Below are positions 2 to 9,241 of a DNA stretch of 29,642 nt, one piece after another (the stretch's first letter is position 1; the number at the start of each line of letters is the position of its first letter). Position numbers and translations under genes: made by a program. This stretch comes from Candidatus Thorarchaeota archaeon (GTDB taxonomy: Archaea; Asgardarchaeota; Thorarchaeia; Thorarchaeales; Thorarchaeaceae), in NCBI GenBank assembly GCA_046758445.1, contig JBHIAE010000034.1, positions 1 through 29,642 on the forward strand, in the 5' to 3' direction. Under the pieces are notes generated by a model. The model made no database searches, was not told the origin of the DNA, and saw only the letters and a program-made list of their open reading frames with translations.

Positions 2-469
2 GAGGGTCGAATTGGCGTTGCTGCGGCTGCAACAGAGATTGGGGCTTCTTCTGGAGACGTTGTCGATGCGGCCGAGAAGCTTGCCAAACGCAGACTCCCC
101 CTTGTCTACCTTGACAGAAGATCAAATGAGATTGTGAGTCCGGGAGCGGTGTCGCTTGAAGAGGGTCTCCTGCATCTTCTTCATGCTCAGAGGAGAATGA
201 CATTCGATCAGATTGGTCGCGTCACAAATGCCACGGATGACCAGATAGTTGAGGCGCTTGAGAACCTATCTCAATCTGGCAAGTTTCGAGGAACCATTGA
301 CAAGAACTCCCGGGTAGTATTCACCTCTGAGGCTGTTGAGCAGCTCCCAAAGGCTGTGACTAGATGTCCAGTATGCTCTGGCAAGCTCTCGAACCCTGTG
401 CTTCCTGGCGAGGAAGAAACCTGCGAATACTGCGGACACCTTATAGTAAACCGCCTTGATCTGGATTAG
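2..469 (+). CDS. PCI-like tandem winged-helix protein with C-terminal zinc ribbon (5'-partial)
   Basis: The frame is open from position 2 (EGRIGVAAAATEIG...). RMTFDQIGRVTNATDDQIVEALENLSQSGKFRGTIDKNSRVVF matches the PCI/winged-helix pattern. It is followed by CPVC...CEYC. Confidence 0.6.
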   Translation, partial: EGRIGVAAAATEIGASSGDVVDAAEKLAKRRLPLVYLDRRSNEIVSPGAVSLEEGLLHLLHAQRRMTFDQIGRVTNATDDQIVEALENLSQSGKFRGTIDKNSRVVFTSEAVEQLPKAVTRCPVCSGKLSNPVLPGEEETCEYCGHLIVNRLDLD

Positions 470-480
470 CAGTGAGACGA

Positions 481-1620
481 CTAGGCTATAGTTTTACGGC
501 TATAGACATCCCAGATGTCAACAATCTCGTCGCCGCTTGTTACGTAGTACTCGTCAGAGAGGTTTGCAGTGAGACAAGAGTGGTTGGGAAGTATCCTTAG
601 GTGGTCACCTGGTTTGAGTTTCTTGATTGGTGAGCCTGCTTCCAATTTGACCTTTCCATGTTCCTGAGAGAGACTGGTTATCACTGTTTCCTCAGCATGG
701 TCGCCTTCGTCATAATTCGAGAGAATCTTACCATATCCGCAGTCAGGATAGATATGAGTTGGCCCGGGGTCGTGTGAGAGTGCTGTAGCGCCAGCATCAA
801 TGATCAGCCTGTCCTTGAAGGCGCCAATCACACTGGATAAGACTGTAAGCGCACAACTGTACGACCTACACGTCCCTAGAGCCACCTGTGTATAGTCGTA
901 GAACACATAGTTGCCCGGACGGATTTCGGTTATTCCCTCAGGTATCGTGTCACTAAGCATCATCGTAGGTGTCGAACCTATGCTGACTATCTTGGGAGTG
1001 AGTTTCCGACTCTCCTTCCTCAGCAGCTTGGCAAATCGCAGGACTGCGCCACTCTCCTCAGCGGCAACTTTGCGAATCTCGTTGCGCGATCTTGCAGAGT
1101 AGGAGTGTCCCCCATGGGTGAGAATGCCTGCAAAGCGAAGCTTTCGAGCATTGTGAATCCTCTTGGCAAGGCGAATTGACGAACGTTTCTCAGGGTCAAC
1201 ACCACTTCTATGGTAGTTGCAGTCCACCTTGAGAAGCACATCTAGCTCTAGCTTGCTCTTCTTCAGTCCAAAGATTAGATGTGTGACAGTCGTTGAGTTG
1301 TCGACAAGGACTTTCAGACTAGCCCTGAAAGCAAGCTGTACAATCGCTGGTATCTTGTCAGGGGCCAAAGGAACTGAGAGAGTAATGTCTTTGAATCCGT
1401 TGCGCGCGAAGAACTGTGCCTCTCCAATCGTTGATACTGTTATGCCTAATGCTCCGAAGTTCTTCTGCAGCTCAGCAATCTCTAGACACCTGTGAGTCTT
1501 AATGTGAGGCCGAAGAGCAACTCCGTTGTCCAGAGCCTTTGCTGCCATGAATCTGATGTTCGCTTTCAGTCTGTCATAGTCTACGACAGTTGCAGGAGTC
1601 ACCAGGTCTGAAATCCGCAT
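481..1620 (-). CDS. D-threonine aldolase / D-serine dehydratase (DSD1) family PLP-dependent enzyme, alanine racemase fold
   Basis: RPHIKTH (PLP lysine), HRSGV, SIGSTP, EIRPGNYVFYD, SQEHG and PNHSC motifs. Confidence 0.9.
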   Translation of the reverse strand: MRISDLVTPATVVDYDRLKANIRFMAAKALDNGVALRPHIKTHRCLEIAELQKNFGALGITVSTIGEAQFFARNGFKDITLSVPLAPDKIPAIVQLAFRASLKVLVDNSTTVTHLIFGLKKSKLELDVLLKVDCNYHRSGVDPEKRSSIRLAKRIHNARKLRFAGILTHGGHSYSARSRNEIRKVAAEESGAVLRFAKLLRKESRKLTPKIVSIGSTPTMMLSDTIPEGITEIRPGNYVFYDYTQVALGTCRSYSCALTVLSSVIGAFKDRLIIDAGATALSHDPGPTHIYPDCGYGKILSNYDEGDHAEETVITSLSQEHGKVKLEAGSPIKKLKPGDHLRILPNHSCLTANLSDEYYVTSGDEIVDIWDVYSRKTIA

Positions 1621-1694: not shown

Positions 1695-3131
1695 CTATGT
1701 TATTCCGCGCTGGTCCCCTCGAATTCGGCGTCGTAGAGTTAATCTGACTTCGTCGAGTTTGCTTCGTGCTCTACTTCTCTTAGGCCAGAAGTTCTTGATT
1801 TCCTCAAAGCCATGAACATCCCAATAGAGGGGACAGGCTCCTGTGCAATACTCGAAGTACTTGCATGGCCTGCAACCTTCAGGTGCAAAGTCCTTTGCTC
1901 GCCAGAACCTTGCTGCTCTGCTGTACCATACCTTCTCAAACCCATCTTCCAAGAGATTCCCTACAGGCACGCTGAAGCTAGAACAGGGCAAGACTCCTCC
2001 CTCTGCATCCACAGACAACAGACCGTCACAGCAGGCACACGACTTTGCACCGAGACCATGAGCAATGGGGTTGAACAGACAGACGGGCGTCGGAGCATAC
2101 CACACAAACTGGATTCCCTTCCTGTTGGCCCTCTTCTTGACGCGCTTCACAACATCACCTATCTCTGAGTAAGTGATCTGAAGCTCATCCCGAAGCTTCG
2201 CAGCAGTACCTGTGTATATCACCATGTTCATACTGAAGTAGCTGAGCTGAAGCTGGTCAGCAAGGAAGTCGACAAGTTCTTCCATGTGTTCTCTGTTCGG
2301 TTGGCAGATAGTGGTGTTGCAATGAGTGTAGATGTCAGTGTCCCTTAGATTCATGATGCCCTGGACTGTCTGATCAAATGCACCCGGGATGCCGACCATG
2401 AAGTCATGGACCTCAGGAGTAGGGCCTTCAATCGATACCTGAGCACTGTTTAGCCCTGCATCCACGAGTTCTTGGACATACTCTCTCTCAGCACATCTTC
2501 GGCCATTTGTAATGAGATTCACTCGAAGACCTCTCTTCCGAGCATACGCAATCAGGTCAAACAGGTCCTTGCGGAGAGTCGGTTCGCCTCCAGTGAACGA
2601 TAAGCTCGGAACATGAGCATCGTCATCAATGATGTCGATGACTCGCTTGACCTCTTCAGTTGTCATTTCGCCAGATTCACGATAAGGTGCATAGGCATAG
2701 CAAAATCGGCATTGGTTGTTACAACGATATGAAATCGCAATCTCACTTAGCACAGGATACTTGATCTCCCCTGTACCGAACGGGACGATATTCGCTGTCT
2801 TATAGGAGTAGACATTCAGATTGCCCATTGTCATGTTCCGAAGGTCGTCGACGAACGCGGCGAGATCATTCACTACAACCTGTTCAGTGGCACCGAAGTC
2901 TTCCACAAAGTGTCCTACCACATCTGTTGGAGAGGAACCATCTAGAAGCATTGTGAGCATTATGACTCCAGTCTCATTGAGATGCATGACTTTGTTTGGA
3001 CGGAGAATGAGCAGGTTATCTTCGGGTCGAACGAAGAAGAACTCCTTCACATCCTCGATGAAGGTGCCTACCCAACTCAGTTCCTCAATACTGTAGTCAT
3101 AGTGTGGATGTGGCATCGTTCTTGTTTTCAT
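1695..3131 (-). CDS. Radical SAM/SPASM peptide or protein maturase with N-terminal PqqD-like RiPP recognition element (RRE)
   Basis: N-terminal LNETG...helix-helix-helix PqqD pattern. CNNQCRFC (CxxxCxxC), FTGGEPTLR, ITNG and QVSIEG. SPASM cysteines CACC..PC..GNL..CRPC...CTGACP. The start could alternatively be ATG 3116. Confidence 0.9.
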   Translation of the reverse strand: MKTRTMPHPHYDYSIEELSWVGTFIEDVKEFFFVRPEDNLLILRPNKVMHLNETGVIMLTMLLDGSSPTDVVGHFVEDFGATEQVVVNDLAAFVDDLRNMTMGNLNVYSYKTANIVPFGTGEIKYPVLSEIAISYRCNNQCRFCYAYAPYRESGEMTTEEVKRVIDIIDDDAHVPSLSFTGGEPTLRKDLFDLIAYARKRGLRVNLITNGRRCAEREYVQELVDAGLNSAQVSIEGPTPEVHDFMVGIPGAFDQTVQGIMNLRDTDIYTHCNTTICQPNREHMEELVDFLADQLQLSYFSMNMVIYTGTAAKLRDELQITYSEIGDVVKRVKKRANRKGIQFVWYAPTPVCLFNPIAHGLGAKSCACCDGLLSVDAEGGVLPCSSFSVPVGNLLEDGFEKVWYSRAARFWRAKDFAPEGCRPCKYFEYCTGACPLYWDVHGFEEIKNFWPKRSRARSKLDEVRLTLRRRIRGDQRGIT

Positions 3132-3242
3132 CGAGTCTGTAATCTTAAGGGTTCGCGTATAGCTCGACAGTCTAGGCTAGCTGAAAGGCTTATCTACATC
3201 CAAGTTCGAATAGGCCCAGTGCACCATCAAGGAGTGTAATGA

Positions 3243-3638
3243 ATGAGTTCTAGCGAAATCACGCTGCCATATGGAACGATAAGCAAGAAGAAGCTAATCA
3301 TGCACTTCAGCGCGTTCGATATCGACCTTCCAGTAATTGCAGCCGGAATCAGGGAGCGAATGGATGTTCTGCGGGAACTCGACGTCGCCTTTGCGGGTTT
3401 TGGAACTGAGGTTCCAGAGGACATGACAGAACAAACTCCAGCCACAGTGAAGTGCTTCTTCGAGTACCTCGGAAAACAAGTTGACTCCTTTCTAGTACTG
3501 AAGAGAGTCTACCATCTCGTTTGGGGAGGGATGATTCAGGAGTTCCCAGATTTTGAGGAGTGGGCCGCTGCGAAGGCAGACCTGTCTTCCCTTACCATCG
3601 CCCAGGCGGATGTCATCCGAGCAAGAAGAGGAGAATAG
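3243..3638 (+). CDS. Hypothetical protein (131 aa), first gene of the cluster divergent from the radical SAM gene
   Basis: Clean ORF with GGAG RBS about 8 nt upstream and a plausible alpha/beta composition. No family recognised. Confidence 0.7.
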   Translation: MSSSEITLPYGTISKKKLIMHFSAFDIDLPVIAAGIRERMDVLRELDVAFAGFGTEVPEDMTEQTPATVKCFFEYLGKQVDSFLVLKRVYHLVWGGMIQEFPDFEEWAAAKADLSSLTIAQADVIRARRGE

Positions 3639-3678
3639 CATTAGGGATCAATATGAGAGAAGGATACGAAGTGTCACG

Positions 3679-5808
3679 GTGGGAATCCAACGCTTGAGAC
3701 GAGGACTGAAGCTTGCCGCCTTCATCGCAGTCGTCCTACTTGTTGCAGTGCCTGTAAGGGCCGACTTCACACCAAGTCAAGCTCCGGATGTGAACCTTGA
3801 CAGTATCTATGTTGATGTTGTTGTTTTGCCAAACGGACGCATCAATGTCACATACTGGATCACAATATCTGTATTGGATGGCTCTCTAGGAGGCTTTGAT
3901 CTTCTGGGAATCCAAGAGAGCACCATCTATGACTCTAACAGGGCATATGCAGAAGTTGGAGGGAATCAGTATAGTCTCATTGTAGGTACTCGCTCCAATG
4001 GTTATGCACTAGACTGGACTCCAAGGACTCAAACTGGAGAAACTGTCACTGTAGTATTTGGGTACTTCAGTACCAACCGTGTCATAGAGAGGACCCTGGA
4101 CCTCGGAGTCTTCCACTGGGCTCCAGTTCAGTGGAAGGTGCCTGTTGACTATGAGAGTGTTAGAGTAATCTACCCGATTGTGATGCAACCTTCTTGGATT
4201 ACCGGAGAGAGTGGGATAACACAAGAAGGTGCTGACTTCGCCGGCTACAACGTTTCAACTGATCAGGGTCTCTGGGACAATCAAGGAGGGCAATTCGCTT
4301 TCGACGAGGAGAACTTGCTCGCCTATCCAACATCTCCGTCGGCTACTCCCAGAAATTTCAGTGTGAGCCTTGCTCACAACAACCTAGATCCTTTCGATCA
4401 TTTCAGAGTCTTTCACTTCACAAATTGGAGCTTCTACGCTCCCTATCTGCTACCGGGATCTCTAGGATACAGCACTGAGGAGAACATCAATGTAGACGCG
4501 AACGTCGAGTTCAGCATAGACCTGAACGTGTTCAACTTCGGTGATGCGCCACTGGATGACGTCACAGCATCAATGTCCGTGCCTGAGAATCTCACATTGA
4601 CATCGGGTCAGGTCGTTACATATGTCGGGACACTTGATGGAGGGGAGAATTCGGCTTTGACCTTCAATTTCGTTCCAGACAACATCCCCGAGATTCTACC
4701 AGTCACATTCCAAGTAACAGCATCCAATCTCAATGCAAGCGAATGGATCACTTTCACAGTCAATGTATTCGTTCGAGAATTCATCCCTCCGCTGATACCG
4801 CCAAATGTGTTGATTCTTAGCTTCGCTGGAATCGCGGCCGTGGGCATTGTATACGTCGGCTATAGAAGAACAACCAGGCGATATGGAGCCAAGTGGAAAG
4901 CTGATGAAACCACATCCGTCTATCAAAGCCCTGAGATTTCAATCCAGACCTTCGGCACTCCCGGAACAGTGGCTGAGCTGGATCCCGTCGAGAGCGCATT
5001 CTTTGTCAACACAAGCCGAAAAGACATCGTATCTATGATTCTCATGTCATGTGTGCGAAAGGGAGCAGTCCGAGTCATCTCGGGGGACCCATTGCGTCTA
5101 TCAGTTACGGGACTGAAGTTTGAAGATCTGACTTACTATGAGGAGCTGTTTGTTGAATCAATTGACAACAATGAACTAGACCAAGACAAAATCGACGACA
5201 TGTTGGAGGAGCTCGCTCAAAGGGTACAAGACAAATCTTGGGATGCAGACTTTGAGGCTACCAAAACCAACCATGACGAGATGGTGAATGGTGCTTGGGA
5301 TGAACTCGAGAGCCACCCAAGTCTTGATGGTCGAGTCGACTACTACTTCAACAGACACTACCACGATACTTGGGCTTGGTACTGGTTGTTTATGCACCCC
5401 CGGCATCACTATCATGTTGGAAGAGCATTCACACCTCCCGGCGGGACTATAGCACCTCCAAGAATTCCAGATTGGTTTGGGCAGATGGCTGAGGCAACTG
5501 GTCATGCGATTGGCGAAGTGGGAAGAGTTGTCGGAGATGTTGCATCGACCACGGCACAGATCATGTCGAACGTGACGGATACGATTGGCAGTGTGCTCGA
5601 AGGAGTTGGAAACATCATTCGCGAACCGTTGAAACCTATCATCGAAGGGACCAGCCGTTGTGTGTCCCATGATGCTTGCCATTCAGCTTGTGTTTCACAT
5701 GATGCCTGCCACAGCGCTTGTCACAGCGCTTGTCATAGTGCGTGCGTATGCCATAGTGCTTGTCATGCTGCATGTCACTCAGCTTGTGTATCGGGTGGAT
5801 TCAGATAG
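3679..5808 (+). CDS. DUF2207-like single-pass membrane protein with Ig/CARDB-like domain and C-terminal Cys/His-rich (CHSA)n tail
   Basis: Start moved to GTG 3679 (or TTG 3694) to avoid overlap with the upstream ORF. Signal peptide RRGLKLAAFIAVVLLVAVPVRA. DUF2207-like VDVVVLPNGRINVTYWIT. Ig-like NFGDAPLDDVTASMSVP. TM helix near 4804-4863. Cytoplasmic LDPVESAF..LMSCVRKGAV..LTYYE. Tail CVSHDACHSAC...CVSGGFR. Confidence 0.8.
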   Translation: MGIQRLRRGLKLAAFIAVVLLVAVPVRADFTPSQAPDVNLDSIYVDVVVLPNGRINVTYWITISVLDGSLGGFDLLGIQESTIYDSNRAYAEVGGNQYSLIVGTRSNGYALDWTPRTQTGETVTVVFGYFSTNRVIERTLDLGVFHWAPVQWKVPVDYESVRVIYPIVMQPSWITGESGITQEGADFAGYNVSTDQGLWDNQGGQFAFDEENLLAYPTSPSATPRNFSVSLAHNNLDPFDHFRVFHFTNWSFYAPYLLPGSLGYSTEENINVDANVEFSIDLNVFNFGDAPLDDVTASMSVPENLTLTSGQVVTYVGTLDGGENSALTFNFVPDNIPEILPVTFQVTASNLNASEWITFTVNVFVREFIPPLIPPNVLILSFAGIAAVGIVYVGYRRTTRRYGAKWKADETTSVYQSPEISIQTFGTPGTVAELDPVESAFFVNTSRKDIVSMILMSCVRKGAVRVISGDPLRLSVTGLKFEDLTYYEELFVESIDNNELDQDKIDDMLEELAQRVQDKSWDADFEATKTNHDEMVNGAWDELESHPSLDGRVDYYFNRHYHDTWAWYWLFMHPRHHYHVGRAFTPPGGTIAPPRIPDWFGQMAEATGHAIGEVGRVVGDVASTTAQIMSNVTDTIGSVLEGVGNIIREPLKPIIEGTSRCVSHDACHSACVSHDACHSACHSACHSACVCHSACHAACHSACVSGGFR
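5659..5805 (+). repeat. Protein-level Cys/His repeat (CHSA / CVSHDA units)
   Basis: The 49 codons encode 11 Cys and 9 His. Synonymous codons differ between repeat units. Confidence 0.9.
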
Positions 5809-5874
5809 GATTCTGAAGCCTAAGCATTCTGCTTGATTTCGGAATGCTATTTAACATAAATCTCAGCCAACAGA

Positions 5875-7104
5875 GTGATTGAAATGTCCGTGGAAGAGAG
5901 ATTCGTACGTTTCTGCGGTGAGCTTGGCAACTTCTGCGAGAGAGTCACCGGGACCAGCCTGATTGATGCCTATTTCGGTCCTGACGAGTTGGTTCCTTCT
6001 AGGCAACGGAAGGACTCAATGCCAGAGGCCTTGCTACGAGAGCTGGATGTAATTCGAGACCTCATATCAGATCAGATTAGTGAGAGAATCCGGCAGGATT
6101 TCATGCTGAGTGACATCAAGTCGCTCCGAACGACTCTGCTTTGGTTGTCCGGCCATGAGATACCCTATGTCGACCTTGTTGAAGGTCTCTTTCACGTAGA
6201 GCCCAGAGCATTCGCCGAGTCTGACGTTGAGGCAGCTCGACAGCGAGTGGAAGATGCTTTCTCAACTTTTCCGGGTGAAGACACTCAAGACCGTGTGACT
6301 AGGTTCCGAACAGTAGGAGAGATTATAGGGCCCCAGGCTAAAGAGTTCATAGAGGTTGAACTTCAGAGAGAGAGTGTCGAAATCGGCCGGATGTTCAAGA
6401 CCAAGATCTACGATGTCATTGGGGAGTCGGTGACAGACAACGGTATAAGCTATGAGGCCGTCAGAGGTAAGCCGTGGGGTGCATACAACTGGTACAAGGG
6501 CAACTATCGTTCCGTGAACCAGTTCAATATCGACCGTCCTATCAACAGGAACACGGTAAACGCCGCAGTCTATCATGAATATGAACACCATGTGTCCCTT
6601 CTTTGGAGGGAGAAGGCATACTTGGAGCGCGGTTGGACTGATCTCTCTGTTGTTCTACTCCACACTGGCCGCTCCATTATAGCTGAAGGGACCGCTGACA
6701 CGGCTGCTGACTTCCTAGGAGTTGGAAGAGGGACACGTGAGGGGACCGCGGTCAGAGCGATGACTGATCTCTTCCGAATACTCAGCATCAATGCAGCAAT
6801 GATGATGAATCAAGAAGAGGTGCCCTTTGACGAGGCAGTAGAATACGCCATCGAGCGCAGCTTCAGTCCACGTGAAAGTCTAGAGGGGGCTTTGGGTTTC
6901 ATGACTCCAAAGACGCCTAGCGGCAGCCCCAACTTCTTTTCTCCGTATGTTTTCGCGTATTTTATCGGCCGGAACGAATTCGTGTATCCCGCATTCGCCA
7001 AGGCTAAGGAAAGGAACATGCTGTCCAAGTTCTACAGAACAGCCTACCTCAATCCGTATGTAGGACATAGCGCGACCTGGCGTGACGCATTTGATTGGCT
7101 ATGA
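5875..7104 (+). CDS. HExxH zinc metallopeptidase-like protein (gluzincin / DUF885-like)
   Basis: YHEYEHH followed about 30 aa later by IAEGTA (third-ligand Glu). WGAYNWYKG and YVFAYFIG segments resemble DUF885-like proteins. The start could be ATG 5884. Confidence 0.65.
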   Translation: MIEMSVEERFVRFCGELGNFCERVTGTSLIDAYFGPDELVPSRQRKDSMPEALLRELDVIRDLISDQISERIRQDFMLSDIKSLRTTLLWLSGHEIPYVDLVEGLFHVEPRAFAESDVEAARQRVEDAFSTFPGEDTQDRVTRFRTVGEIIGPQAKEFIEVELQRESVEIGRMFKTKIYDVIGESVTDNGISYEAVRGKPWGAYNWYKGNYRSVNQFNIDRPINRNTVNAAVYHEYEHHVSLLWREKAYLERGWTDLSVVLLHTGRSIIAEGTADTAADFLGVGRGTREGTAVRAMTDLFRILSINAAMMMNQEEVPFDEAVEYAIERSFSPRESLEGALGFMTPKTPSGSPNFFSPYVFAYFIGRNEFVYPAFAKAKERNMLSKFYRTAYLNPYVGHSATWRDAFDWL

Positions 7105-7210: not shown

Positions 7211-8620
7211 TTATTCACCACTACCTTGAGCTGCAGAGTATGCTCTGTCAAGCTCTCTTTCCATCGGGGCTGGAATTGCACTTTTCCCTGTGACGTCCCC
7301 TTCCTTTCTCCGAATGAAGACATAGAGCAATGTGACATACACGATGTCAAAGGTCCTCAATACAAGAGTGACTGGGATGCCTGCTAGGACTGCAAATACT
7401 ACTGCCAAGATGATTGTCATGATGAGGTCGCCGGCGAACGCCACCCAACCTATGACCGCCCCGCCCAGAGCGAACGCGAGGAAGAACGTGACAGCAAGGA
7501 CGCCAAAAGCCCATCTCACCGCTGTTTCCTTGATAAGTACGTCAACGAAGTTGTTCCTCACAAGGCCAATGCTTCTTTTGATACCATCCTTTGCACCTAG
7601 CTCTTCCGCAACCATCGCTGGGATCGTGAAGTAGTTGACCAATGCCCATATCCAGCCAATTATCCCGCCTGCGGCCCTGCCGACTGCCTCACCACCGGAG
7701 CCTCCGACCTCTCTGCCCACGCGCTGCAGAATGAGCCTGACGATTACTATGATCACGCTCAATATGCTGAGAACAATGATGCCAGTGATGACACCCAGAG
7801 ATGATCTGACTCCGTCTCCCAAGTCCGGGTCTCGTCCTCGCATGTAGATGTAGACTATTGCTGACGAAGTCCCGTAGGCAAAGTTGTAGAAGAAGATGGT
7901 CGCGAACAAGTATAGGACAATGCCGATTCCGGCCGCCCAACCATTCTCGAGAGTGAGTGAGTAGCCACCGCTTCCTGCAAAGACATCTAATGCGTGACCT
8001 CCCGAAAGGACATCCACTGAGTAGAAGGCGATTCCGCCGAACATCACAGCTGAAATCAGAGTGAAGAACATGACTAGGACCGGGGGCACGAACACTCCTT
8101 TCTCATCCAGACACACTTGACCCGTAAGCTTCACAATCTCCCCCGCACGGCGAATCCTCTCCCTAAACACCGTGAACAACAGGAGCGTGAGAAATAGGGT
8201 GAACACACCAGGGATCAGAACTTGCCAAACCAATGGTCCTCCGAAGATCAGCATAATAACGGGGATTGCCCAGGTCATCAGGTTCATGAAGAACGCTCCA
8301 ATGTAGATGAGCGTCCCACCTAGCCTCTTCGCGAGAACTGAAGCCCCCCACGCTACAAAAACGCTCAGAAGTATCAGCCCAGCTAGTATAGCACCGATCG
8401 CTATGGCCGCATCTGTTGGTGAGATTACCAAGCTAATAACACTCAAGATATCATTGATGAAAGCCATCACTTGTGTACCATACTGATTCCATAGATTCCA
8501 TAAGGAAAAGACACCTGCAGCGAGAAATGCACCCAGCACGATTACGACTCCCGCCACAGCCATTCCGTGGCCTGGGTACTGTTTCTCATCATGATAATTG
8601 ATGATGTCAGTACGTGACAA
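7211..8620 (-). CDS. Polytopic membrane protein, choline-transporter-like (CTL/SLC44) or DUF6159-like
   Basis: About 9-10 hydrophobic helices. RERIRRAGEIVKL after a TM, and WALVNYFTIPAMVAEELGAKDGIKRSIGL. TTG start with GGAGG RBS. Confidence 0.6.
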   Translation of the reverse strand: MSRTDIINYHDEKQYPGHGMAVAGVVIVLGAFLAAGVFSLWNLWNQYGTQVMAFINDILSVISLVISPTDAAIAIGAILAGLILLSVFVAWGASVLAKRLGGTLIYIGAFFMNLMTWAIPVIMLIFGGPLVWQVLIPGVFTLFLTLLLFTVFRERIRRAGEIVKLTGQVCLDEKGVFVPPVLVMFFTLISAVMFGGIAFYSVDVLSGGHALDVFAGSGGYSLTLENGWAAGIGIVLYLFATIFFYNFAYGTSSAIVYIYMRGRDPDLGDGVRSSLGVITGIIVLSILSVIIVIVRLILQRVGREVGGSGGEAVGRAAGGIIGWIWALVNYFTIPAMVAEELGAKDGIKRSIGLVRNNFVDVLIKETAVRWAFGVLAVTFFLAFALGGAVIGWVAFAGDLIMTIILAVVFAVLAGIPVTLVLRTFDIVYVTLLYVFIRRKEGDVTGKSAIPAPMERELDRAYSAAQGSGE

Positions 8621-8761
8621 ACATATTCTCCTCCATTCAACGAGTTAAAATTCATGTCAGTTCAACCATCCTGTACAGTTAAATGTTGGGAGGCACAGAA
8701 GCGCCTCGTTGCACTCAACCATTTCACCTATAGATACGTATTTCAAAGAAGTAGCGAGAGT

Positions 8762-9241
8762 ATGTCCATGGAGTCTATAACTTACTGCGAACCGGAGCGT
8801 CTTTTCTGCAGAACAAGGGAGATACTGCTTGCAGTTGACGGGAGCAAGGGTTCAGCCCGGGCGGCAACCGTGGCGTTCGAGATAGCCGAAATGACAGAGT
8901 CCAAAGTGTTCATCGTACATGTGATTCCGACTCCGTCGATCAAGCAGCTGTCTCTCATGACTGGAATGAAAGAGGATGAGGTCCTTGCCAAGTATACGAA
9001 GAACGGTGAAACACTGTTGGCAGGGTATAAGAATGCCTCAATTGAGTTCGACCTTGAAGTAGAGTTGTTGCTTGAGAAGGGCTTGCCTTCTGAGCGGGTG
9101 ATCATGGCAAGTGAGCAGCACAACGTCGACCTTATTGTGATTGGGTCAAGAGGAACGGCCGGTGGCAGGCGAGCAGGCATGGGTAGCTTCACAGAGAGAA
9201 TTGTGCTTCAGTCCAAGTGTCCTGTGATCGTCGTGAAGTAG
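8762..9241 (+). CDS. Universal stress protein (UspA family)
   Basis: ILLAVDGS, DLIVIGSRG and GSFTERIVLQSKCPVIVVK. Start trimmed to ATG 8762 (or 8768). Confidence 0.92.
   Translation: MSMESITYCEPERLFCRTREILLAVDGSKGSARAATVAFEIAEMTESKVFIVHVIPTPSIKQLSLMTGMKEDEVLAKYTKNGETLLAGYKNASIEFDLEVELLLEKGLPSERVIMASEQHNVDLIVIGSRGTAGGRRAGMGSFTERIVLQSKCPVIVVK

Follow-up and report, generated by a model that had tools for sequence, protein, structure and literature searches.

A radical SAM enzyme paired with a Cys/His-rich cytoplasmic membrane-protein tail in Thorarchaeota: a candidate protein-maturation system

A 29,642-nucleotide stretch of DNA (the window), on contig C34 of a 3.25-Mb Thorarchaeota-type metagenome-assembled genome (92.7% complete), carries a gene for a radical S-adenosylmethionine (rSAM) enzyme and, across a short divergent spacer, a gene for a large membrane protein that ends in a Cys- and His-rich repeat (Table 1). 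The two genes are linked in archaea and in bacteria, their joint presence and joint absence were observed directly, the tail is conserved, and the enzyme carries the domains and Fe-S motifs of a peptide-modifying class. From this we infer that the enzyme's target, reached in the cytoplasm, is the C-terminal (A-C-H-S)n tail of its neighbour, a DUF2207-like protein, so that the substrate would be the whole membrane protein rather than a short peptide. The likely chemistry would be the formation of several intramolecular thioether crosslinks (ranthionine- or sactionine-type) from 11 Cys, and the modified tail would most likely stay on the membrane protein. A conserved 131-aa protein (p131), apparently translationally coupled to the membrane protein, and a Zn-ribbon protein would be accessory parts of the Thorarchaeota version, and the nearby HExxH metallopeptidase-like and D-serine-dehydratase-like (Dsd-like) proteins would be bystanders. 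Taken as a whole, and on sequence evidence, we consider this reading rather probable.

Table 1. Features of the locus, with positions in the window.
Feature	Position	Strand	Remarks
RRE (PqqD)-radical SAM-SPASM enzyme, proposed tail maturase	1695-3131	-	478 aa; Pfam domains, Cys motifs
Membrane protein	3610-5808	+	~732 aa; likely start ATG 3610; open reading frame open from TTG 3553, start uncertain
C-terminal tail of the membrane protein, proposed modification site	5659-5805	+	~49 residues; CVSHDA-CHSA-type units, ends CVSGGFR
Divergent intergenic region	3132-3242		111 nt; between the rSAM gene and the p131 and membrane-protein genes; putative promoter role
p131, conserved cytoplasmic protein	3243-3638	+	131 aa; no family match; 29-nt overlap with the membrane-protein start at ATG 3610
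Small membrane-anchored winged-helix-like/Zn-ribbon protein ('up155')	2-469	+	C-terminal part, cut by the window start
PLP (pyridoxal phosphate) enzyme, alanine-racemase-N/D-serine-dehydratase-like (Dsd-like)	481-1620	-	Pfam PF01168 and PF14031
HExxH+E metallopeptidase-like protein, cytoplasmic	5875-7104	+	409 aa; DUF885/M32-like fold; 66 nt downstream of the membrane-protein gene

The gene layout given in a preliminary description of this DNA (rSAM gene, divergent spacer, p131, Cys/His-tailed membrane protein, HExxH protein) was confirmed by the open reading frames (ORFs). Its central proposal, that the substrate is the cytoplasmic Cys/His tail and not a short precursor, is supported by the co-occurrence of enzyme and tail and by a lack of short precursors, both described below.

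SPASM enzymes that bear a recognition element (RRE) of the kind found in the maturation of peptides that are synthesized ribosomally and modified after translation (RiPPs) bind a peptide segment and apply radical chemistry to it, most often forming Cys thioethers. By its sequence the window enzyme appears to belong to this class, with a CxxxCxxC motif in its Radical_SAM domain, a SPASM domain with the Cys for two putative auxiliary clusters, and an N-terminal PqqD-like element. In Pfam, the PqqD domain (PF05402, residues 42-99) scored 34.2 bits against a cut-off of 23.4, the Radical_SAM domain (PF04055) scored 104 bits, which is above its cut-off, and the SPASM domain (PF13186) scored 30.4 bits against 21.5. 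The Cys of the CxxxCxxC motif (C137/C141/C144) are invariant in 18 orthologues, as are C365, C383, C420, C423, C429 and C433 of the SPASM region, which include a CX2CX5CX3C arrangement at 420-433; C351 is nearly so. Orthologues, each time encoded next to a tail protein, share 68-93% identity within Thorarchaeota and 40-51%, over the full length, in bacteria and other Asgard archaea, and rSAM paralogues of the same genome match over part of the length only, at no more than 37% identity and about 100 bits. The enzyme reached no cut-off among all curated NCBIfam models, the best scores being to AhbD (152 bits, cut-off 500), NirJ2 (140 bits) and Tes (85 bits). SkfB was its best sequence match in the PDB, and the GDGT-MAS structure 7tol was also among the PDB matches.

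The proposed substrate is built from an N-terminal signal or anchor segment (residues ~29-56), a DUF2207-like ectodomain with an extra insert, one transmembrane helix (~391-419) followed by RRTTRR, a cytoplasmic domain of ~260 aa and the Cys/His tail. Because the helix precedes RRTTRR, the last ~310 residues are predicted to be cytoplasmic (positive-inside inference). Exactly 11 Cys and 9 His lie in the last 52 residues, and the Thorarchaeota tail has two C-V-S-H-D units. The tail is identical or nearly so in ~40 Thorarchaeota species. When compared with ten orthologues it showed 29-43 nucleotide differences per 156 nt but only 0-2 amino acid changes, and the 52 residues preceding it showed 6-31 amino acid changes in the same ten; by these comparisons the tail appears to be under strong purifying selection at the protein level. 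Tandem Repeats Finder (TRF) detected only 12-nt and 30-nt periodicities in the tail DNA, and the codons vary between units, which suggests that the repeat is kept as protein and is not the product of recent slippage. The back-translated tail motif occurs in this gene alone within the 3.25-Mb genome, and the repeat is conserved in 24 proteins of several phyla.

No Cys-rich small ORF that might encode a short precursor was found outside the large genes of the window, which agrees with what had been noticed before. Short proteins with such tails number ~8 among 5.8 billion sequences and lie mostly on tiny contigs. Classical RiPP systems have a short precursor and a conserved leader or release peptidase; here the candidate substrate is 732 aa long, and the HExxH protein is not conserved with the pair.

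The ectodomain of the membrane protein had been assigned to DUF2207 and Ig domains. A DUF2207 relationship stands as a remote one, reached through bacterial homologues; a direct match does not, and the only CARDB match is weak (E 0.018, below cut-off). The window protein has no match to DUF2207 (PF09972, cut-off 24.4 bits) at E <= 1. Its bacterial homologues P0008 and P0038 match PF09972 at 25.0 and 25.4 bits, bacterial homologues match TIGR04222 at 24 bits, and hhalign matches the Thorarchaeota and bacterial membrane proteins over their whole length (probability 100, E 2e-94), the Thorarchaeota protein having an extra insert at ~276-400 relative to its bacterial partners. Like DUF2207/TIGR04222 proteins, it has a signal or anchor, an ectodomain with a Y-V-x-V-x-L-x-x-G-R-(I/L)-N-V motif, a transmembrane helix, a cytoplasmic region and a low-complexity tail. 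In typical DUF2207 proteins the tail is rich in Gly and Ser.

Relatives of the enzyme were collected by a scan of one genome per species, which gave 80 loci. p131 and the tail protein lie across the divergent spacer from the enzyme in 43 of 43 assessable Thorarchaeota loci, with the membrane gene interrupted in one (L015). Among Anaerolineae/Chloroflexota, the gene immediately upstream of that for a 50%-identical rSAM enzyme, and on its strand, encodes a tail protein of 570-620 aa in all 27 loci; these proteins have a signal peptide and share the N-terminal ectodomain motif, and their tails read (ACHS)n ... CVS(R/N)F. The enzyme-tail pair was also found in Promethearchaeota, Helarchaeota, an Odin-like contig and the divergent Asgard locus L110. 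From the side of the tail protein, a search of 5.8 billion proteins with the cytoplasmic half as query returned 89 homologues, from Thor-, Odin-, Hel- and Promethearchaeota, Anaerolineales, Ozemobacteraceae, Spirochaetia and others, and where the C-terminus is complete it reads, in nearly all cases, (ACH[SD])n-CVSGGxx or something very similar. An rSAM/SPASM gene adjoins the tail gene in each of the six contexts examined (three unrelated bacterial contigs and three Asgard contigs). The preliminary description had suggested checking whether homologues of the enzyme co-occur with Cys-tailed DUF2207-like partners, and across Asgard archaea and bacteria they do.

The phyletic sample held 251 genomes of the phylum, and the pair was counted in 59 family-level relatives; such relatives share kinship and are not independent, and presence and absence are given as counts without a statistic. 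The tail protein was present in 41 and the orthologous enzyme in 42 of the 59, with both genes in 38, neither in 14, and one without the other in 7. The 14 pair-negative relatives include all sampled members of genera g2, g7, g8 and g14, and the loss of both genes throughout whole genera fits the expectation for a functional pair. Contig ends, incompleteness or an in-frame stop explain five of the seven discordant genomes. In the sixth, genome G197 (99% complete; L102/L015), the membrane gene is cut after ~108 residues and is followed by unrelated ORFs of 336, 91 and 402 aa, with the rSAM and p131 genes intact (G197:C8:1-8000); a mobile element may have inserted into the substrate gene. The seventh is G242, described below, in which the search gave no rSAM orthologue.

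A second type of tail accompanies more distant enzymes. Relatives of the rSAM enzyme with 30-36% identity, in four other Asgard families (f2, f5, f9 and f22), adjoin membrane proteins of 500-630 aa that end in Gly-rich (CA)n-GGGR tails, and in these cassettes (L095, L097, L098, L100, L103, L104 and L106) the pair is followed by a protein of ~250 aa with a class-I SAM methyltransferase-like motif. The tails of Promethearchaeota are hybrids, (CHSx)n-CVS-(CA)4-GGGW. In a small, quick FastTree phylogeny of 24 enzymes, rooted on two paralogues and made without bootstraps, two clades matched the type of tail, with SH-like support of 97% for (ACHS)n and 100% for (CA)n-GGGR. Since the clades coincide with tail type, the enzyme seems to follow its presumed substrate rather than the organism. 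Bacterial and archaeal enzymes are mixed within the (ACHS)n clade, which suggests transfer, in one direction or the other, between archaea and bacteria. A specific and selectable function is likely, given a tail that does not vary and a pair whose two genes come and go jointly and are shared across the boundary between archaea and bacteria.

A peptide-sized variation on the tail was seen on a metagenome contig (L108:46-3594), where proteins P0095-P0097, of 96-138 aa, end in C-[HY]-x-[AN] repeats and GSRGWR. Two of them have signal peptides, and one is immediately preceded by three genes of the rSAM/SPASM type, none with a match to a curated family. These proteins look like a separate relative of the same tail theme.

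Several points weigh against the tail being the substrate of the enzyme. The literature searched contained no chemistry on this system. Cys/His repeats are classic metal ligands, and the tail could simply bind metal. No curated thioether maturase model gave the enzyme a score anywhere near the cut-off, and its best scores were to tetrapyrrole enzymes. Genome G242 (one contig, 77% complete) has an intact tail, and neither a p131 nor an rSAM orthologue was found in it; the N-terminal ~227 residues of its membrane protein, about a third, do not align. In family f12, an rSAM relative and a methyltransferase-like gene occur with no adjacent tail gene in three of three loci (L096, L099 and L105). 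The preliminary description had named enzymes lacking tailed partners, and tails widespread in genomes without the enzyme, as observations that would count against its proposal; apart from G242 and the f12 loci, neither pattern emerged.

G242 is a relative from the same genus as the source of the window. At its expected p131/rSAM site (L101; G242:C1:1226855-1240000) lie two inverted, paralogous membrane-protein genes of ~306 aa, an arrangement that reflects either a rearrangement or an assembly chimera.

The main remaining rival explanation is that the Cys and His of the tail form a ladder that binds metal or Fe-S in a membrane protein of the sensor or transporter-like kind, and that the rSAM enzyme is functionally linked to the tail without modifying it covalently, for example by using it as a cluster or metal donor or as a docking site, or by acting on another substrate. 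The 11 Cys and 9 His stand in strict register, and in the variant tails, (CA)n or mixed, Cys is the only constant, as would be expected of ligands. Many Cys-rich archaeal proteins bind metal cofactors, according to a recent study (Dieter et al. 2026, PMC13692751). However, the enzyme has an RRE domain, which in RiPP maturases binds peptide substrates, and the rSAM clades track the type of tail. A metal site would also have no obvious need for a dedicated rSAM enzyme that is lost jointly with the tail. We regard this explanation as unlikely.

The closest published parallel to modification of the tail is in Methanococcus voltae, where CrpC, an RRE-rSAM-SPASM enzyme, was found by experiment to install ranthionine crosslinks on CrpA, a whole Cys-rich repeat protein (Dieter et al. 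2026, PMC13692751). The window locus is similar in that an archaeal RRE-rSAM-SPASM gene lies beside the gene for a Cys-rich repeat protein and not a short peptide, and the Cys of CrpA are concentrated C-terminally (PMC13692751). The window enzyme scored 55.3 bits on the model of the CrpC family, TIGR04463, against a cut-off of 525 (C34:2214-2741). The repeat of CrpA is 17 residues long and carries C-X-X-Q/D motifs; the protein also has an N-terminal leader-like region, and the sections consulted mention no membrane anchor for it (PMC13692751), whereas the repeat in the window is a four-residue A-C-H-S unit at the end of a membrane protein of ~730 aa, and the accessory genes differ. The preliminary description knew of no such system characterised in Asgard archaea; this holds for the literature searched, the related archaeal case of CrpC and CrpA having been published in 2026. 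That literature yielded nothing on the tail repeat or the enzyme-tail pair, nor anything that joins radical SAM to a 'Cxxx repeat' or to DUF2207.

Cys at every fourth residue as the target of an rSAM/SPASM enzyme is also a feature of the CXXX-repeat maturase system (TIGR04115, rSAM_Cxxx_rpt, with the target TIGR04117, Syntroph_Cxxx). The window enzyme scored 19.7 bits on TIGR04115, whose cut-off is 350, and TIGR04117 had no match in the genome, nor in any control genome. Full-length homologues of the tail protein from bacteria (P0008, P0054 and others) carry precomputed matches to a newer Pfam family, PF27846 ('tSAM_targ_Cxxx_rpt'), so that curators already flag such tails as rSAM targets; the window protein carries no precomputed entry. 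No experimental work on TIGR04115, TIGR04117 or PF27846 was found in the literature searched.

In PapB, CteB/SCIFF, SkfB and QhpD/QhpC, as is proposed here, SPASM rSAM enzymes, mostly with an RRE, form Cys thioether links. PapB targets Cys-X3-Asp, and QhpD crosslinks a whole small protein. The substrates of PapB, CteB, SkfB and QhpD are short peptides or a soluble subunit, whereas the candidate here is the tail of a membrane protein, and the window enzyme scored 82.1 bits on the PapB model (NF047865, cut-off 340) and 99 bits on that of StsB (cut-off 625). The type of bond can be proposed only with caution: the two C-x3-D units of the Thorarchaeota tail resemble PapB targets, yet (CA)n tails offer Ala and Cys alone, leaving no obvious common acceptor.

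Work on rSAM thioether chemistry has dealt nearly exclusively with short secreted peptides, and experimental evidence for a whole archaeal protein as its target first came with the 2026 study (PMC13692751). An rSAM thioether-type maturase acting on a Cys-repeat target is thus of a known kind; judged from sequence, what would be new here is the tail of a membrane protein as the target, together with an uncurated enzyme family. If correct, our proposal would extend rSAM thioether chemistry to the tail of an integral membrane protein and would provide an initial clue to what the large DUF2207-like family does. We give roughly even weight to the broader idea that the cassettes represent a widespread class of protein maturation, as yet untouched by experiment, in which RiPP-type rSAM chemistry would act on the cytoplasmic tails of DUF2207-like proteins to leave a retained crosslinked or cofactor-like Cys/His structure, with p131 and the Zn-ribbon protein as helpers, and which would have been exchanged between Asgard archaea and anaerobic bacteria.

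The fuller model put forward earlier was that of a membrane-tethered RiPP: once crosslinked, the tail would be cleaved from the protein by the HExxH peptidase, perhaps as a reaction to whatever the ectodomain has bound. The label 'gluzincin-type HExxH peptidase' is reasonable for the protein in question. Its motif is HEYEH, and H234, E235, H238 and E271, the zinc and catalytic residues, are invariant in 14 orthologues. The structure model (pLDDT 92.9) has as its best Foldseek matches the DUF885 structures 3o0y, 3iuk and 3u24 (E 1e-6, TM-score about 0.5), followed by M32, M2 and M3 peptidases, so the fold appears gluzincin-like and the activity putative. The protein has no Pfam or NCBIfam match and neither a signal peptide nor a transmembrane helix. 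Its gene follows the membrane gene closely on the same strand and neighbours the pair in many Thorarchaeota genomes. However, no HExxH homologue was present in any bacterial or non-Thorarchaeota Asgard cassette examined, and other peptidases (InhA/M6-like or M4), or none, lie near the pair elsewhere. Even within Thorarchaeota, loci L029, L030, L034, L036 and L046 showed no copy of it close to the pair, and in many genomes 0.8-2.7 kb of unrelated genes (metallophosphoesterase, deformylase-like or GTPase-like) separate it from the membrane gene. It is also kept in two high-quality relatives, G005 and G063, which both lack the rSAM enzyme, the tail protein, p131 and the Zn-ribbon protein. Because of its absence from non-Thorarchaeota cassettes, the intervening genes, its absence from several loci and its presence in relatives without the system, the link of the HExxH protein to the system is weak. 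The protein is probably a bystander and not a part of the system, and release of the tail by it was not borne out. We consider the tethered-RiPP model very improbable, and coupling of tail release to an extracellular signal would be pure speculation.

Least probable of all, and hardly to be expected, is that the rSAM enzyme modifies lipids or tetrapyrroles, as a SPASM enzyme of the Tes/Gms- or AhbD/NirJ-like type, and that its position reflects membrane or cofactor biology and not protein modification: the top NCBIfam scores listed above, the presence of 7tol among the PDB matches and the occurrence of Gms homologues in Asgard archaea (PMC11186832) point that way, but the scores are far below curated cut-offs of 450-500 bits, Gms has a six-helix N-terminal domain (PMC11186832) and not an RRE whereas the window enzyme has PqqD above threshold, and the strict pairing with an invariant tail across domains would be left unexplained.

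Under the proposal that the tail is modified and retained, p131 is counted as a part of the Thorarchaeota module. It is 67-85% identical in 13 Thorarchaeota orthologues and has only 16 relatives among 1.84 billion representatives. A 28%-identical relative lies directly upstream of the tail protein and rSAM enzyme in L110, a locus that shows the bacterial gene order. The distribution of p131, the HExxH protein and the Zn-ribbon protein was compared in selected relatives with and without the system (five of the latter), and p131 was found in 5/5 system-positive and 0/5 system-negative relatives. The p131 model has a pLDDT of 74 and gave no usable match in a fold search of the PDB, nor was there one in the protein atlas; a weak ACT-like similarity was seen.

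The Zn-ribbon protein is a probable part of the Thorarchaeota module, and the left border of the system accordingly reaches the window start. Its full-length orthologue, read in L005, is ~240 aa long, with two N-terminal transmembrane helices, a winged-helix-like middle and a C-terminal Zn ribbon. The gene neighbours the rSAM gene in nearly all Thorarchaeota loci with enough flank, including those in which the Dsd-like gene is missing. The protein is weakly similar (E 1e-3 to 9e-6) to proteins with two transmembrane helices and a Zn ribbon in the cassettes of Anaerolineae, f2 and f9. It was not found in the five system-negative relatives, with a query that had no separate positive control.

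The 'third gene' of bacterial and other Asgard cassettes was considered as a counterpart of p131 or of the HExxH protein and was rejected, there being no similarity. These third genes are of at least three unrelated kinds, coding for a ~410-aa coiled-coil protein, a ~330-aa membrane protein and a ~250-aa class-I methyltransferase-like protein. In ~19 Anaerolineae loci, an InhA-like (M6)/MA-clan protein of ~660 aa with a MAM domain follows the Zn-ribbon gene (L051:7936-9915 and equivalents).

The Dsd-like PLP enzyme is probably a passenger or bystander. Its gene adjoins the rSAM gene in most Thorarchaeota loci. Exceptions that lack it there include L010, L032, L034 and L036, and no non-Thorarchaeota cassette carries it.

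On the other side of the locus, a calcineurin-like metallophosphoesterase with GD...GNHD motifs lies directly downstream of the membrane gene in L023 (4498-5265), L038 (3342-4088) and L101 (4228-4998); it occupies that site in many Thorarchaeota genomes and is not found in this window. L038 also has inserted genes of the peptide-deformylase-like and GTPase-like kinds. The HExxH protein shares 45-51% identity with other genera and 63% within the genus, and the flanking genes share 55-90%. At least one Thorarchaeota genome has two copies of the HExxH family (P0181 and P0230, which have the same locus-tag prefix), and the copy in the window may be fast-evolving or paralogous. In most Thorarchaeota loci the HExxH gene is adjoined by genes for a DUF6159 membrane protein (469 aa; window 7211-8620, minus strand) and a USP-like protein (8654-9241, plus strand), a block that looks like ordinary conserved synteny rather than a part of the system.

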